Shown: positions 6,620-55,680 of the stretch, piece by piece
Layout: every line of letters begins with the position of its first letter
Position numbering within the stretch: the stretch's first letter is position 1
DNA from: Rhina ancylostomus
Lineage: Eukaryota
Direction of reading: 5' to 3'
DNA length: 64,000 nt
NCBI GenBank assembly: GCA_030265395.1
Contig: JARFYF010000060.1
Span: forward strand, 11,494,507-11,558,506
Program-made: the position numbers and the translations under genes
Notes under the pieces: generated by a model
Told to the model about the DNA's origin: nothing
The model's database searches: none
Seen by the model: only the letters and a program-made list of their open reading frames with translations

Positions 6620-7177
6620 TGTAGTAAGAATCCTGAAATGTTGGCCAGAGAGCGCAAGGAACAATTGCTGGGATCAAATGTGTGTGTGCGGGGAAGGGTA
6701 ACCTGGGTGCTCGGTAACCAAAGTATTGTCTCTGCATACATGAGCCTGCAGTGCCTGAGGCAATAGTCAGGTAGGGGCTAGGGGAGGAGAGAAGTGAGCA
6801 GGGTATAAAAGAGTGAGCCCACTGGTGGTGAGGTCTCTTGGATTTGGGCTCACCACAGGTTAGGTCGCGACTGACGCTGTGGACCAATTGGAACAGGGCA
6901 CTGCAGTTAAACGGGCTCAGGCGCACTTCCGAGATAAGTATCACTTGTTGTAANNNNNNNNNNNNNNNNNNNNNNNNNNNNNNNNNNNNNNNNNNNNNNN
7001 NNNNNNNNNNNNNNNNNNNNNNNNNNNNNNNNNNNNNNNNNNNNNNNNNNNNNCTCACTTCAGAGATAAGTATCACTTGTTGTAATTTAGCAATAAAGTG
7101 CATTGTGCGCAGCATTGCGTGTGCAAGGCCTATTTTTATCAGATCTGCGAACAACCCTGCTTAACTTTGGCACAACA
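6620..7177 (+). repeat. ERV 5' LTR
   Basis: Starts tgtagtaag and ends cacaaca. TATAAAA at 6804-6810 and AATAAA at 7092-7097. Aligns with 11912-12337. Contains a 100-N gap. Confidence 0.93.
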
Positions 7178-7179
7178 AT

Positions 7180-7197
7180 TGACGTCACTAACAGGAT
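7180..7197 (+). other. Primer binding site, tRNA-Ser(CGA) type
   Basis: TGACGTCACTAACAGGAT matches at 16/18 the complement (TGGCGTCACGAACAGGAT) of the 3' end of vertebrate tRNA-Ser(CGA), recalled from memory. It lies 2 nt after the LTR end. Confidence 0.75.
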
Positions 7198-7221
7198 CTG
7201 GTGAAATAAACTGCACTCACA

Positions 7222-7667
7222 ATGTTCAAGAAGAGTAAAAATGTTGAGTTGACTCCTGAATTGTTCTGTGTCCCCGAGTGGACTGACAACTCTGAGGGCT
7301 TTGGTAGTCTGGCCAACTTATTGGCGGCACATGGTGCCCCAGTGGACAAGCAGAAACCTGCAGGCATGGAGCTGGGGCACTGCATGGTCTTATTGCTCCA
7401 GGCTAGCGGGTTCCCAGGTAGAAAGGGTAACCAGCAGGAGCTTAGGAAATTGAGGGAAGAGAATGGTAATTTAAAACAGAGATGCACCATGATGGGCAAA
7501 TCTGCGATAAGCTCTCAGCAGAGGGCTGAGGTGTTCGGGGATAAAAGTGTGAAGATGGCCAGCAAATTAATCAAGGCTAAGTAGGAGAAAGCAGACCAGT
7601 GGTCCCACTAGACCCATCAAAGGTGTGGGCCACAGTTTTAAAGGGTGACGACCCCAGATAGCTGGGG
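7222..7667 (+). pseudogene. gag: ERV gag N-terminal remnant
   Basis: 120-aa ORF with a coiled-coil-like stretch (ELRKLREENGNLKQR), then frameshifted PSKVWATVLKGDDP/DSW, resembling ERV-L gag KVRALIGKEWDP..WNG. It runs into a gap. Confidence 0.7.
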
Positions 7668-7848
7668 NNNNNNNNNNNNNNNNNNNNNNNNNNNNNNNNN
7701 NNNNNNNNNNNNNNNNNNNNNNNNNNNNNNNNNNNNNNNNNNNNNNNNNNNNNNNNNNNNNNNNNNNNNNNNNNNNNNNNNNNNNNNNNNNNNNNNNNNN
7801 NNNNNNNNNNNNNNNNNNNNNNNNNNNNNNNNNNNNNNNNNNNNNNNN

Positions 7849-10553
7849 TTCTATTGACAATGGTCATCCGCTTTCAGGAACCATTTTGGTGACCCCCCCC
7901 CCCCCACCGCCCCTCTGGAGTGTATCCTGGGGATGAATGCATTAAGGGGATGATCATTACACACCAGAAGGGGTCCCTTTATCTTTGAGGTTTGTAAAGC
8001 TACAATTACATTCGGCGAGGCCAGGTTGTGCCCTATGGTGATACCCCACCTGCAGAGGTAGTGAACATCGAATACCGGGAGGTACCACAGAAATTAGTGA
8101 GACCATGGAACCACTCCTCCATACGGCCCAGTTACCTCCCCCTTTCACAGTCTGGTGTGGCCTGTGCGTAAACCCAACGGCTCATGGAGGATGACCATCA
8201 ACTACTGTCAGCTGAACCAACACGTACTGCCTTTGTCCTCAGCAGTACCCGATGTAGTCACTGTAGTCGAGAACATCAGGGGAAGGGAAGACAAGCGCTG
8301 GTGTGTGGTCGTGGACTTGGCAAATACATTCTTCTCTATCCCACTGAGCCAGGAATCGCAGGACCAATTTGCATCTATCTGAGAAGGCAGGTAGTGCACC
8401 TTCTGCCGCTTGCCTCAGGGATGTGTACACAGTCCTACCCTCTGCCATGGGATCATTGCCAGGGACCTGCACCGCATACCCTGGAGCCCTAACGTTTCTA
8501 CCTCCCACTACATCAATGACATCAAGCTGCAAGGAACGGATGAAGAATTGGTGGCGCAGGCCCTTCACTTACTACGCAGCAACTTAAGGGACAGAGGATG
8601 GTGCCTTAATCCAGCCAAGATACAAGGCCCCAGCCATAATGTTTCCTGGGTATCCAATGGCATGCCGGACATCGCGAGATCCCAGAGAAGTCAAAACGAA
8701 AGCTCCTGAAGACAGCAGTCCTTACCAGCAAGGAGGAAACACAGTGATTTGTTGGGCTTCTTGGCTACTGGAGGGAGCACATACCCCACTTGACCATACT
8801 TCTGTGACCACTCTACCAAGTGTTGAGGAAGAAGGCAAACTTCCAGTGGGGAGCGGAACAGGCATTCGATGGAGCCATGCTCGCCGTGGAGTGAGCTCCT
8901 CCTCTGGACTCCCGACAGCAAGGCTTCCTGTATGAATTGCAAATGTCAACCACCAACACTGTGGTAGAATGGAGTCTCTGGCAGATGCTGAAGGGCAAGC
9001 AAGTCCCCATTGGCTTCTGGACTAAGATAAGATAAGGCATTGACATCGACGGAACACCAAACAGAAGCCGCTCCGGTTACTCCCAGGCCCCACCTGCCCA
9101 TCATGCAGTGGGTGAAGTCGGATAATACCACACACAAGGAGGGCCGTGCCCAGCCCTCCTTGATTGTCAAGTGTAAATGGTACATCGTGGACCATGCGAA
9201 GAAGTGGCCAGATGGCATCAGTCGGTTGCACGAATAGGTGATGGATCTTCCTCAGGTGGAATCCCGCCTCACACAGGAAGACCTCTCTCAATCCCCGGTC
9301 TCTTGGGGATGCCCGTATGATGTGCAGACTGAGGATGAAATGAAAGAGGCTTGGTTTGCTGACGGGTCTAGTGGATGGAAGAATGGGAAACAGTGCTGGA
9401 AGGCTGCAACACTACACCTGGACACCGGTCTTACCCGTGTCACAGAGGGTGGCGGAGGGTTCAGCCAACTGGCCAAACTTGTGGCTGCCACCTTGTCTCT
9501 GAAAGACGATAAGGGCCCCATCCGACTGTAGATGGACTCCTGGGCTGTTACCAATGGTACAACTGTTTAGATGACCTCGTGCAATAGCAGGACTGGAACA
9601 CCCATGGCCTTCCATTATGGGGCCAGCCCCACTGGGAACACATTTGGCAAGAGGCTGGGCTGCGGCCCATCACCATCTACCACTAAGATGCCCACACTCC
9701 CAGCAAGGATAACGAGTCCACTCACGACGTTGCTGTCGACAAGGCTGCACAGATTGTGAGTCTCGCTCCTGCACAGCCAGAGTGCTTGGCAGGCTGGCTG
9801 CATCAGAAGAGTGGCCATCCAGGGGTGGAGCCATGCAGGAAATGGGCCAAAGCAAGAAAGGTATCACCAGTTGGTGACAAAGCAAAGATGGTGGTAAACC
9901 AATGTGAGAAGAGCCAGACAGTAAAGCCCTGTAACTTCCCCATGGTTCCAAGAGGGGCAATCCGACGTGGAAGTGGCGCTGGACGAGTTTGGCAGACTGA
10001 CTACATTGGCCCGCTGCCACCCCAGAACAAGAAGAAGTGCATCTTGGCCACTGTGGACTCTTATTCAGGAGTACTGACTGCATTTCTCTGCAGCTGAGCA
10101 GACCTAGGAAGCACTAGAAAAGGACTGCAACAGCTATCCTAAATATATGGAACATCAGGGGAGACACAGTCAGATAATGGATCTCACTTCTCCCGATCAC
10201 AAGTCCAGGAGTCGGCTGCGGATTCTGCTATATTGTGGGTCTTCCATATGACCTACTACCCCCAGGCATCAGGACTTATTGAGTGGATGAACGGACTTCT
10301 GAAGCAGCAGATAAGACAACTGACGCCGACCTACACATTGCAGGGGTGGTTTGTAGTATTGCAGCAGGCTGTGAGCAATTTAAATGCCCGACCCTCTAAA
10401 TACGGAGGCACACCTATGTCTCGACACTTGGCCATCGCTGACAACCCAAAGGGGGATGATAACTCTGCCAAACAAGGACTCAGGGAAGGTATGAGTTTGT
10501 TTGCCCCAGAAAGGGCCAGGGAAAGGAGAGGTGGTGACCTGTGGACCTGGTGA
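7849..10553 (+). pseudogene. pol: ERV pro-pol (protease C-terminus, RT, tether, RNase H, integrase) with many stops and frameshifts
   Basis: Protease: ECILGMNAL. RT: WPVRKPNGSWRMTINY, DLANTFFSIP, LPQGCVHSPTLCH, HYIND (degenerate YIDD), NPAKIQGP. Tether: LPIMQWV..HKEGRAQ..KWYI. RNase H: AWFADGS, DSWAV. IN: LHQKSGH, WQTDYIGPLP, SDNGSHF, YPQASGLIEWMNGLLKQQ. All closely follow ERV-L/HERV-S pol. Confidence 0.95.
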
Positions 10554-10655
10554 CACACGATGGGTAGCGGTAGAGGGGGAGCTGGGGCTAATGTGCTTGA
10601 ACACCCAACAGTTGACAAAAAGAGAGTGAGTGTATGTGATTGATCCAGGGGGGAG

Positions 10656-11900
10656 ATGAAGCTGGTATTTCTAGTCCTGATGGTGGTCGACTGTACAGAT
10701 GCCTCTGCCTACATCAATGAGGCTCCGATCCGAAACTCCTTCTTCTCCCTCTGTTATGAATGAGCCAGCTGCCTTATAGATCTGACCATTGGCGCCTCAC
10801 TGTGACGAAGAAGGGATTCCACTCTGGGCCATACCCCTGAACGAGAGTGAGCAGTTGTCTGCGTGGGCCTCCTCTAATAAGACCAGGAGAAGTGCAGCCA
10901 AGACCTGTGCCCATTGCAGTGACTGTGGGTGTCACTGTTTTGAGGGGTGATACCACCCATCACCCCTGCACCCTAATGCCACGAGCAATTTAAATAAAAT
11001 GGCCCTGGCAGTACACAGATAGCAGCAAATGGAGGCCACCTGCTGCTGTAATAATGAGGGGAAAGGGACCTTCATCGGTAATGGCTTATGTACTCGTTAC
11101 ACCACCGCAGACCACCCGCCCTAGTCGATGGTACCTACAGAGCATGCGGAGGGAACACATACCCCTAGCTTCCTGGAATGCCAGGTGACCTGTGGGCCTC
11201 ATGGCCAGATCCTGAACCCTGGAGAGGGTGCTGTTACCTGGCGCATGTCGTACCCCACTTGCGGCACCTGAAGGAGCTGAGGGGGCACCCCCACCTGACC
11301 CGAGCTGAAAGGGCCATCACTGAGGCCGCAAGTTTTGGGTGACAGCCTGCCCTGCCTGTAGAGTGGTGACAGCAGCCAGAGAGCTGATTGATATGGCCTC
11401 AGCCATAGCAGCTCTTGCAAATAGGAAGTCCACTGCCTTTAGTGAGCTTAAAGAAGCCCTCACTGAGCTGTCAGCAGAATCAGTGGCTGTCCGGTCGGTA
11501 GCCCAGCAGAACCGGATGGCCATAGACTTCACCCTGTCTGAGAAAGGGGGTACATGTGCTGTAAGAAAGGGGGTACACAGGCTGTACCTTTATTTCCAAC
11601 AGCTCTGATAACATCACGAACCTGGCGAGCCGTATTCAAAGGACAGTGGGAAAGATGAACAAGTTTGGGGAACAATATCATGATTATTACTCTCCTGGGG
11701 GTTAGTAGCCCTTTGGAACAATAGGGAATTGGTGGTTCACTATGGTACATTGGGGTCTGACAATAGGGGTAATAATATTGGCTTTTATATTANNNNNNNN
11801 NNNNNNNNNNNNNNNNNNNNNNNNNNNNNNNNNNNNNNNNNNNNNNNNNNNNNNNNNNGGGATGCACAGGGATGTCTTAGATTGCAAGCGCCCTCTGGCC
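10656..11900 (+). pseudogene. env: ERV env remnant, gamma-type TM
   Basis: Signal-like MKLVFLVLMVVDCTDA at 10656 and a degenerate cleavage site RAER. Heptad region followed by immunosuppressive-domain motif QQNRMAIDFTLSEKGGTCAV..CTFI. Membrane anchor HWGLTIGVIILAFIL. Confidence 0.88.
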
Positions 11901-11911
11901 GAGGGGTGGAA

Positions 11912-12337
11912 TGTAGTAAGAAAACTGAAATGTCAGCCAGAGAGGGCAAGGAACAATTGCTGGGATCAAATGTGTGTGTGTGGAGGGGGGAAGGGTGACC
12001 TGGGTGCCAGGTAACCAAGGTATTGTCTCTGCAGACATGAGCCTGTAGTGCTCGAGGTAACGGTCACGCAATGGGTTGACCTGGACAAAGGATCGACCCA
12101 GCTAGGGGCGGAGAGAAGTGACCTGGGTATAAAAGAGTGAGCACACCAGTGGTGAGGTCTCTTGGATTTGGGCTCGCCACAGGTTAGGTCGTGACTGATG
12201 CTGTGGACCGATCGGAATGGGTCACGGCAGTTAAACGGGCTCAGGCGCAGCAATAAAGTGCGTCGTGTGCAGCATTGCGTGCGCAAGGCCTATTTCTATC
12301 GGATCTGTGAACAATCCTGCTTAACTTTGGCACAACA
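11912..12337 (+). repeat. ERV 3' LTR
   Basis: Follows the PPT. Starts tgtagtaag and ends cacaaca. TATAAAA at 12128-12134 and AATAAA at 12252-12257. Confidence 0.93.
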
Positions 12338-45645: not shown

Positions 45646-47565
45646 GAATCAGGATCAGATTTATTATCACTGACGTATGTTGTGAAATTTGTTCTTTTGC
45701 GATAGCAGTACAGTGCAAGACATAAAGACATAAAAATCACCATAAGTTACAAAAATAATAAATAGTGCAAAAGAGTGTTCATGGGTTCATGGACCATTCA
45801 GAAAACTGATGGCGGAGGAGAAGAAGCTGTTCCTGAAACGTTGAGTGTGGGTCTTCAGACTCCTGTACTTCCTAATGGTAGTAACATGAAGAGGGCATGT
45901 CCTGGATGTTGAGGGTCCTTAATGTGGGATGCTGCCTTCTTGAGACACCGCCTCTTGAAGATGTCCTTGATGGCAGGGAGGGACATCCCTTCCTTCCGAT
46001 AAGGAAGTCGAGGATCCAGTGACAGAGGGAGGGTACAGAAGCCCAGGCTTTGAAGCTTGTTGAATAGTACTGAGGGGATGATGGTACTGAACACCGAGCT
46101 GTAATCGATAAACAGCAGGCTGATATACCTATGTTTTGCTGTTGTCTAGGTGCTTGAAAGCAGAGTGGAGAGCCAGTGAGATTGCATCCACTGTAGACCT
46201 GTTGTGGCAGTAGGCAAATTGCAGCAGGTCCAGGTCCTTGCTCAGGCGGGAGTTAATGCTAGCCATGACCAACCTCTCAAAGCACTTCATCACAGTAGGT
46301 ATGAGTGCTACTGGGTGATAGTCATTGAGGCAGCTCACCCTGCTCTTCTTGGGCACCGGTATGATTGATGCCCTTTAGAAGCAGGTGGGAACCTCCAACT
46401 GCAGCAGTGAGAGATTGAAGATGTCCTTGAACACTCCAGCCAGTTAGTTGGCACAGATTATCAATACCTTACTAGGTACACAATCAGGGCCTGACGCCTT
46501 GTGAGGGTTCACCCTTTTGATGTTCTCATGTCAGCCTCCAAGACAGAGATCAGAGTTGCCCGATGCCGTGGGGATTCACAGGTGTAGTGTTATTCTCCCT
46601 TTCAAAGGGTGCAGAAAAGGCGTTGAGCTCATCTGGGAGTGAAGCATTGCTGCCATGTTAGGTTTGGTCTTATAAGAAGTAATGGCTTGCAAACCCTGCC
46701 ACAGCTGTCGTGCATCCAATTGTTTCTCTAACTTCACTCGGGGTTGCCTTTTTGCTCTCATGATGGCCTTCCATAGGTCATACCTGGACTTCTTGTAGGG
46801 TTCTGGATCACCGGTCTTGAACGCCACTGATCTAGCCCTCAGCAGACTGTGAATCTCCTGGTTCATCCAGGGCTTCTGGTTCGGAAAAACTCGACGGCAC
46901 ACCTCATCCCCGCAGGTCTTGATGGAGCTGGTGGCAACTGTGGCATATTAATTCAGATCTGAAGATGAACCCCTGAATGTGGTCCAGTCTACTGATTCAA
47001 AGCAGTCCTGTAAACGCTCTTCAACCTCCCTTGACCAGACCTTCACAGTCCTCGCCACTGATACTGCGGTCTTCAGTCTCTGTGTGTATGTCAGGAGTAG
47101 ACGTGCAGCCAGGTGATCAGACTTGCCAAAGTGTGGGCGCGGGATGGCATGGTAAGTGTTCTTAATGGTGGTGTAGCAGTGATCAAGTGTATTGGCTCCT
47201 CTGGTTCTGCAAGTGACACATTGGTGGTAGTTTGTCAGAGACTTCTTCAAGCTGGCCTGGTTGAAGACCCCATGATGATTGGGAAGGTCTCGTGACTGTT
47301 GATCACGGTGCTCAGCTCCTCCAGTGCCAGCTTGTCATTTGCCAGGGATGGAATGTACACCGCTACCAGGATGGTGACAGAGAACTCCCTCGGCAGATAA
47401 AACAGACAACACTTGTTCGCCTGATGTTCCAGGTTGCGGCAGCGGGACAGTGACAGAACCACTGTGTCTGTGCACCACGATGAGTTAATAATGAAGCAAA
47501 TGCCACTGCCTCTGCCTTTGCCTCTGCCTTTGCCTCTGCCTTTGCCTCTGCCTTTGCCTCTGCCT
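45646..47565 (-). mobile_element. Rex1/Babar LINE, 5'-truncated and internally deleted
   Basis: EN remnants TLDHCYT and FGKSDH. Also [27 protein letters not shown] and LQFAY..NRST.DAI. The sequence then jumps to IKDPQHPGHALF. 3' tail aataaatctgatcctgattc. Confidence 0.9.
47507..47565. repeat. 12-bp tandem repeat (tgcctctgcctt), about 5 copies, at the 5' end of the Rex1 copy
   Basis: Read directly. Encodes GKGR repeats continuing the element's own GKGRGSGICF motif. Confidence 0.9.
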
Positions 47566-48158
47566 AAAATGCCACAAGGATATGAAAGCTGGAAATGCAA
47601 AATCTTTTCAGGATCATTTTAAACAAATTACCTCTCAAGCATCTGCTTTGGTTCAATGCTATTGTTGCAATGATCACAGGATAGGAAAATGTTGTCAAGG
47701 CAGTTTTTCATGGTTTGCTTGCTCACAGCGTCATTTGTACCAATTGCAATTTAGTATTTGTTAGTTTTGAATCTGCTGTTGAAAATTTGGCTAGAATTAA
47801 TTGATTTTTTTTTTATAACTCCATATTTCTACAAATAGAACAACTGTCGATGCTTTGGGTCAAAATCCTGCATCAGGACAAAATGGGATATTGGATTACC
47901 TTGCAATCATTGTTATAAATGAGCTGTTTCAGTGCAAGATGGTAAATTAATATTTTTCAGCTTTTTTATTATTTTTACCACTGCTTACTGATGAAGGAAG
48001 TTATTGTGGTGTTTAAAAAAAGTTCCTCTCTGAGAAGGCATAGATGAAAAATCAGTGCTTTTCTATTTTAGGGATGGTTTCAAAGGGATAATGTAGTATT
48101 TGTTAGGTTCCAGGAAGATGCTCGGCTTAAAAACTCAGCCCTACTTAAATGATGAAGT

Positions 48159-54799: not shown

Positions 54800-55680
54800 G
54801 CTGGTGATGGGATTACGTTGTAGCTGGTGGAATTGTTGAAGAATGAAGTTCTGGGTGCGTAGGTTGGTGGGGTGAAAGGTAAGGACCAAGAAAATCCCTG
54901 TTCTGTCTGTGGGGGGGGGGTGGTAAGAGGAAAAAGTCCGGAAATGGAGGAGAAGTGGGTGAGTGCTCCATCGACCACAGTGGGGGTGAAGTCCCATTTC
55001 CTGAAGAAGAAGGACATCTCAGATATCCTGGAGTGGAAGGCCTCATCTCAAGAACAGATATGGGGGAGATGGAGAAACAGAGAGAAAGGAATGGTGTCTT
55101 TTCCTACAAGGTGGGAGGAGGTGTAATCTCGGTTGCTGTGGGAATCAATGGATTTGTAGTAAATGTCAGTGGGTAGTTTGTCTCCTGAGATGGAGACAGA
55201 GAGATTCAGAAAGGGGAGATTCAGAAATCGTCCAAGTGAATTTGAGGGCAGGTTGGAAGTTGGTAGTGAAATTGAGTTCCACGTGGATGCAGGAAGCAGC
55301 ACCCCAATGCATTTGTCGATGTAGCAGAGAAAGAATTGGGGAGCAGTGCCAGAGTAGGTTTGGAACAAAGACTGCTCCAAGTAGCCAACGAAAAGGCAGG
55401 TGTAGTTCAGACCTATGTGAGTGCCCATGGCTTTGATTTGCAGAAAGTGAGAGGAATAAAAAGAGTTGTTCAGAGCAAGTAGAAGCTCTGCGAGGCAGAG
55501 GAAAGTGTTAGTGGCGGGAAGCTGGTTGAATCTGTTTCAGAAAGAAATGGACAACCCTAAGACCCTTTTGATGGAGAATTGAAGTGTGCAGTTGAAGTGG
55601 ATGTTGTTAAAATAGTGAAGAGCATGCAGGATGTCCTGCATGTAGGTAGGAAGGGACTGGACAAGAGGGTGTTGCTTTTC
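54800..55680 (-). mobile_element. Penelope-like retroelement RT fragment
   Basis: MGTHIGLNYTCLFVGYLEQ, FLCYIDKC (degenerate RYIDD), TDIYYKSIDSH..DYTSSH..IPFSLFL and LVLTFHPTN are PLE RT and thumb motifs. Confidence 0.88.

Follow-up and report, generated by a model that had tools for sequence, protein, structure and literature searches.

A decayed class III endogenous retrovirus in the genome of the ray Rhina ancylostomus, HERV-S-like in anatomy and with a probably exchanged env gene

The ERV-L retroviruses encode a dUTPase after integrase, lack env and carry a primer site of the tRNA-Leu type. The clade that includes class III endogenous retroviruses (ERVs), named Huo, infects all major vertebrate lineages according to the accessible text of Xu et al (2018, PMC6001957), in whose S2 Fig the whale-shark element Rh_ty_ERV3 is labelled beside HERVL, Murine_ERVL and HERVS, an order of labels and not of branches. 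A different set of traits is described, in the portions of the reports available, for HERV-S/ERV-S (HERV18, HERVL66) and for the black rhinoceros element ERV-S.1-Dbi: an env gene, no dUTPase, a tRNA-Ser primer binding site (PBS) and a 5-nt target duplication. HERV18/HERVL66 have been described as ERV1-ERV3 recombinants (PMC5753468), and ERV-S.1-Dbi combines a class III pol with a gamma-type env and a Ser(CGA) primer (bioRxiv 2024.03.17.585361). The published description of XtERV-S from Xenopus tropicalis (Yedavalli et al, 2021, PMC8278194), as far as it is available, gives a class III gag-pol, a Ser PBS, a 5-bp duplication, TGT/ACA LTR ends, a basic non-myristoylated Gag and a short SU with N-terminal CWIC, an internal fusion peptide, an HR1 glycan and a QNR-type immunosuppressive domain (ISD), all of which resemble the element described below; it differs in being intact and recent, in its Ser(AGA/TGA) primer and in a 150-residue dUTPase-like segment after integrase. 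Six cartilaginous fish were among the fish and amphibians screened in the study that yielded ERV-SA.a-Ppe, with a class III Pol and a gamma-type Env; its authors, in the accessible part of their text, call their own class III group SnRV-related and describe Pol/Env incongruence as widespread (Chen et al, bioRxiv 2021.11.23.469661). Class III ERVs in sharks, the pairing of class III pol with gamma-type env and frequent Pol/Env incongruence are already published.

The locus described here occupies positions 6620-12337 of a 64,000-nucleotide stretch of DNA from Rhina ancylostomus, hereafter the window. We consider it probable that it is a dead class III ERV of a family that entered the elasmobranch germ line in one burst and then decayed neutrally, with an env that was exchanged and not inherited in common with HERV-S. 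It is a real LTR provirus, ordered LTR-PBS-gag-pro-pol-env-PPT-LTR. The two-LTR structure proposed in a first-pass annotation is corroborated by the PBS, the polypurine tract (PPT), the TATA signals (6804/12128), the AATAAA signals (7092/12252) and a pair of LTRs with TGT...ACA ends, at 6620-7177 and at 11912-12337 (426 bp); all coding and regulatory features lie on the plus strand. The 5' LTR contains a 100-N assembly gap (6954-7053), one of three N gaps inside the provirus, which is flanked on both sides by a 30-nt overlap and thus represents an unmerged assembly join; its true length is therefore about 455 bp, as in solo LTRs. The two LTRs are identical at 352 of 394 aligned bases (K2P 0.116, or 0.066 with CpG sites excluded), and the purine-rich PPT (11898-11911), which precedes the 3' LTR, is the same in the sister copy L001.

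The same annotation had called the element complete, which does not hold: some 1.1 kb of gag and one half of the protease are unaccounted for at a 181-N gap, through either a deletion or an undersized gap in the assembly, and pol is broken by stops and frameshifts. Only the N-terminal part of gag is present (7222-7667); it is basic, has no myristoylation glycine and is homologous to residues 1-145 of the stingray Gag-Pol P0139 (35% identity, E 1e-18, match at 7216-7581). Behind it lies the gap (7668-7848). With tblastn, residues 146 to ~615 of P0139 have no match anywhere in the window, and the match resumes at residue 630, at position 7918; some 470 P0139 residues (~1.4 kb expected) face only 336 nt, 181 of these N. 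The absent stretch corresponds to most of the capsid, the nucleocapsid region and the N-terminal half of the protease, including the catalytic motif, and in sister L177 gag fills over 1 kb here. The Cys-His box region is missing or falls within N gaps in both the window and the L177 Gag, and no Cys-His box was seen in the homologue P0139. Frameshifts break both the C-terminal half of the protease and the start of reverse transcriptase (RT) (7849-8100). The RT core (8101-8655) has two stops and a substituted catalytic aspartate, the connection/tether region (8643-9250) is broken, and RNase H (9340-9745) is broken by stops and one frameshift. Integrase (9790-10629) retains a zinc-finger region, a D,D(35)E core and, 92 nt further on, a C-terminal domain. 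In all, pol bears 11 stops across four single-frame pieces and at least four frameshifts, and one RT catalytic aspartate, one RNase H acidic residue and one zinc-finger cysteine are not conserved. Pfam recognises RVT_1 (E 2.9e-17) and rve (E 2.7e-9) and gives a weak TLV_coat match on the env TM (E 0.082); it has no match on the decayed tether and RNase H pieces, which were recognised via tblastn to P0139 and to the MuERV-L-like Pol P0129. The locus has no coding function today. Elsewhere in the window, the minus strand holds decayed open reading frame fragments of non-LTR retrotransposons at 46579-47618 and 55051-55536, which by eye we take to be Rex1/Babar-like and Penelope-like; Rfam has no match in the window, and no evident host exon was seen among its reading frames of at least 110 residues.

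Judged from its sequence, the provirus belongs to the class III ERV-L/S group. In a 38-row RT tree the ERV-L/S clade is recovered at 100/99 without any gamma, epsilon, beta, delta or foamy virus, and a quick Gypsy-rooted tree of 82 rows agrees (SH-aLRT 99 for the class III clade); these trees rule out a Gypsy, foamy, gamma or epsilon placement and bear out the class III pol of the first-pass annotation. Within the 38-row tree, the window provirus lies deep inside the ERV-L/S clade and groups with Hemitrygon (stingray) P0005 and three copies from the same genome (99/94), two more joining at 93/86, and the ERV-S-like pair from bat and pheasant stands apart (99/93). The sampling behind these trees consisted of 210 RT stretches past a length filter, of which 82 and then 38 were used, the 38-row tree without a mixture model, with natural proteins from searches and virus records as references; the RT of P0139 was excluded from the 38-row tree because its gene model lacks part of the domain, and SnRV RT is absent from both. 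Our labels of reference rows as REV-type, epsilon-type and PFV-type are presumptive and derive from motifs. Three further labels, MuERV-L-like for P0129, XtERV-S-like for P0128 and ERV-S-like for bat P0050, were assigned by visual comparison with the RT alignment shown as Fig. S1 in PMC8278194. In an integrase tree, which contained no ERV-S integrase, the window provirus joins six same-genome copies (99/95) and then batoid proteins from Hemitrygon and Narcine (81/87). The best PDB matches are the RTs of foamy virus, HERV-K and MLV, with similarly weak scores that do not decide the class. The same genome also houses a larger related class III group (L004-L008, L214-L217, L080-L108), with about 50% integrase identity to the window and, at first look, 331 integrase, 628 RT and 383 TM candidates; it has its own env clade, common with Hypanus sabinus, and no dUTPase where probed.

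The env remnant (10656-11792) starts 27 nt past the pol stop and is followed by a 66-N gap. A signal peptide, a short SU, a decayed cleavage site, an internal fusion peptide, HR1, a QNR-type ISD and a membrane anchor can be traced; its gamma type, as first proposed, is corroborated by the ISD and by the relatives of its TM, the Pfam TLV_coat match being weak. The CX6CC region is damaged, with a 23-nt tandem duplication at 11541-11586, and a whole CX6CC is found in none of the three family copies covering the region, against 15 of 22 related TM stretches. The window env has also lost the CWIC, the furin site and the HR1 glycan site, whereas among the three sister envs two have the N-terminal CWIC, two have the HR1 glycan site and L167 has a canonical furin site. 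A search with the window TM returned 41 relatives among 1.84 billion representatives. Twenty of these were looked up and 15 could be named: nine are from elasmobranchs (best Pristis pectinata, then Hypanus and Carcharodon, one shark entry being mis-named as a peptidase), five from ray-finned fish or sturgeon (counted by representative, Esox twice, Aldrovandia and Huso) and one is a sloth PABLB env. The nearest relatives of pol and env alike come from rays and sharks, which by itself would point to an elasmobranch host, likely a batoid. We take the suffix of ERV-SA.a-Ppe to stand for the same Pristis pectinata, which is a guess.

We propose that this gamma-type env was likely exchanged with other fish retroviruses and not inherited from an ancestor common with HERV-S. 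Locus L209 (G000:C65814:472-4751, minus strand) is a provirus fragment on a gap-free contig in which env directly follows an epsilon-type pol whose RT groups with a class I copy of the same genome (100/99). The L209 env is 88% identical to Pristis pectinata P0172, annotated as an uninterrupted 421-residue reading frame, the identity reflecting either the recent sharing of a virus or conservation of env. In the env trees, the window family groups with L209 and Pristis at 85/82 (93/76 in a shorter tree), the remaining class III-linked envs being united in a clade of their own (100/100). That the 88%-identical counterpart of the nearest env follows an epsilon-type pol points to env swapping. Moreover, a clade uniting the class I-linked envs and their nearest kin to the exclusion of class III-linked ones is rejected (p 0.006), to be read in the light that the group was picked after viewing the tree and that only L209 is securely class I, L220/L224 being assigned by weak integrase matches and the RT of L226 being unplaced. 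At least one env exchange between pol lineages, in either direction, is likely. A wider reading, which we hold tentatively, is that rays carry their own large dUTPase-less ERV-L/S radiation of hundreds of copies and several LTR families, and that these may have obtained the fish-type gamma env from co-resident epsilon-type viruses, possibly twice; two independent captures were tested on the env trees and not established.

Conversely, class III pol and gamma-type env could be an ancient and stable pair, with env already there at the root of the ERV-L/S group, lost in ERV-L and borrowed by epsilon-type viruses from class III. Env-bearing class III elements are present in frogs, birds and mammals as well as here, XtERV-S has the same arrangement of N-terminal CWIC and HR1 glycan, and a single clade of all the class III-linked envs of the genome is not rejected (p 0.128) in trees that contained no HERV-S, XtERV-S or SnRV env. 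We nevertheless regard such a pairing as rather unlikely, since class III-linked envs intermingle in the env tree with envs that neighbour a non-class-III pol and with those of sharks, sturgeon and teleosts, and since Pol/Env incongruence is frequent in anamniotes, according to the accessible text of Chen et al (bioRxiv 2021.11.23.469661). Two further observations concern the wider diversity of these genes. The RT of L226 (G000:C94:41815800-41821300) falls outside both the class I and the ERV-L/S clades and by eye resembles whale-shark Rh_ty_ERV4, and its env is of the same type. In the lungfish Protopterus, residues ~800-1046 of P0145, a class III Pol gene model, enter an env-like region without the look of a gamma-type env.

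The combination of a Ser PBS, an env and no dUTPase had led the first-pass annotation to propose an HERV-S-like lineage in elasmobranchs, and each of the traits is confirmed. Between the end of the integrase core match (10394) and the start of the C-terminal match (10486) there are 92 nt, as opposed to the 150-170 residues between the same domains in P0128, P0126 and P0129; dUTPase probes found no match in 22 stretches, 14 of which have an integrase match (one a duplicate locus and one class I). Across the genome, Pfam PF00692 gave one match among seven candidates; this sole dUTPase match, L208 (G000:C60225:52-417), lies in one unbroken stretch on a contig of 540 bp and may be a processed copy or of viral origin. 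The PBS (7180-7197) is of the tRNA-Ser(CGA) type and has two mismatches to the perfect site, which sits behind the LTR of sister L169 and is complementary to the 3' terminus of human tRNA-Ser(CGA), the reference being the tRF-Ser-CGA primer in the consulted part of PMC9659620. No host tRNA-Ser(CGA) gene was recovered from the assembly by pattern and Rfam searches: the first pattern had no matches, the second had 10, of which the eight examined were primer sites and not tRNAs, and the 30 Rfam tRNA loci checked were Cys, Lys and Thr genes only. Seven of those eight primer sites belong to a second, unrelated LTR family of the same genome (L170-L176) with the same Ser(CGA) site, and the PBS consequently says little on descent.

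The lineage part of the proposal did not stand. A true ERV-S member would have received its Ser PBS, its env and its lack of dUTPase from an ancestor shared with HERV-S, by co-divergence or by a jump between host classes. Its three traits do fit the ERV-S descriptions in the accessible parts of PMC8278194 and PMC5753468, and ERV-S.1-Dbi agrees in its Ser(CGA) primer and in its 5-nt duplication in what is available of bioRxiv 2024.03.17.585361. We consider this descent unlikely, given that the RT lies in an elasmobranch subclade and that AU tests reject its union with ERV-S-like RT (p 0.0165 and 0.018), tests that are to be read with care, as they use 182 RT columns under LG+G4, a model that sometimes rejects true clades, and bat P0050 (the sole mammalian sequence) and pheasant proteins as stand-ins for ERV-S. 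A union with the XtERV-S group is borderline rejected (p 0.046) and one with ERV-L is not rejected (p 0.12). These columns do not resolve the class III backbone. Identities run in the same direction: the window RT is 55% identical to stingray P0005, 49% to MuERV-L-like P0129 and 42% to ERV-S-like P0050. Across RT, tether and RNase H, identity to ERV-L/MuERV-L is 46-49%, and the 5-bp duplication is also common to them. From XtERV-S the window provirus differs in being dead, in its Ser(CGA) primer and in having no dUTPase-like segment. Its TM belongs to a fish-type subgroup by database matches, and by eye it is nearer to the coelacanth and teleost rows than to the HERV-S row in Fig. S7 of PMC8278194. 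The term HERV-S-like thus fits the anatomy and not the descent, and the HERV-S traits in the window family are either an old state of the group or were separately reached.

The entry of the family in one burst, followed by neutral decay, is consistent with its other copies. A genome search with the 3' LTR gave 176 candidates, 40 of which were scored, and 39 LTR loci were examined; further copies were recovered, and those with internal sequence are also decayed. The family comprises at least five copies with internal sequence and dozens of solo LTRs. Besides the window copy, internal sequence is present in L001 (pol-env-LTR), L167, L177 (LTR-PBS-gag-pol) and L211, at 76-84% nucleotide identity where measured, and it adjoins only one of the 39 LTR loci (L001). 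The median pairwise identity of the 39 LTRs is 86%. Their 5-bp target duplication is perfect at 14 loci and has one mismatch at nine, that is, at most one mismatch at 23 of 39. Differences between the window copy and its sisters are spread evenly over the three codon positions (103/634, 97/634 and 103/635 against L001; 83/489, 63/489 and 69/489 against L177; 45/272, 46/273 and 35/271 against L211), and no purifying selection is seen in these comparisons. The even spread is as expected of near-identical insertions under neutral decay; it argues against a domesticated gene, and likewise against a long replicating history between copies. The age hinges on the rate chosen: the LTR distance corresponds to 150-260 My at the 2.2e-10 per year assumed in the accessible part of PMC4422223, and to only 15-26 My at the mammalian rate of 2.2e-9. 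It is highly improbable that the LTRs derive from two separate insertions that recombination, or scaffolding over the three internal N gaps, has brought together, for although the 5-mers flanking the provirus agree at only three of five bases and the 5' LTR is as near to the best solo LTR, L129 (90.3%), as to its own 3' LTR (88.8%), two mismatches also occur at 7 of the 39 family loci, the gene order is collinear, and L001 and L177 tie the LTR to both ends of the internal region.

We hypothesise that a single old burst likely brought the family into the elasmobranch germ line. Its founder would have been a simple enveloped retrovirus that primed on the host tRNA-Ser(CGA) and spread by infection, with an Env presumably composed of disulfide-linked SU and TM, in which an N-terminal CWIC paired with the CX6CC of TM, as in XtERV-S. 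Recombination between LTRs may then have reduced most insertions to solo LTRs.

The LTR family is probably undescribed; the broad lineage had been reported before. No description of this LTR family was found in the literature searched, which lay outside subscription journals, Dfam and Repbase, nor did that literature name an env-bearing provirus of the ERV-S-like kind from a ray. An elasmobranch ERV of the broad lineage is known in Rh_ty_ERV3, and a class III pol with a gamma-type env in ERV-SA.a-Ppe, insofar as their reports are available. The first 400 residues of Rh_ty_ERV3 have, by eye, Gag motifs common with stingray P0139 and sister L177; it may be another family, the comparison extending to Gag motifs and label order in the accessible material. 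Similarly, the window lineage may already sit in the catalogue of Chen et al, ERV-SA.a-Ppe being compared by its description in the available text.

Taken by itself, the window provirus is an ordinary-looking class III element, HERV-S/XtERV-S-like in design and failing ERV-S membership by RT, and wider interest attaches only to the kinship of its env with that of a co-resident epsilon-type virus. With it, the ERV-L/S group gains a previously undescribed elasmobranch family, and a provirus can evidently bear the HERV-S trait set without descending from HERV-S. That proviruses of both classes, I and III, carry closely related envs in a single genome offers a natural test case of env swapping for fish. 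If rays do carry a dUTPase-less radiation of their own, the HERV-S body plan would be a design that was reassembled repeatedly and not a single lineage, and the possession of the same env pool by both pol classes would allow the direction of env capture to be tested.
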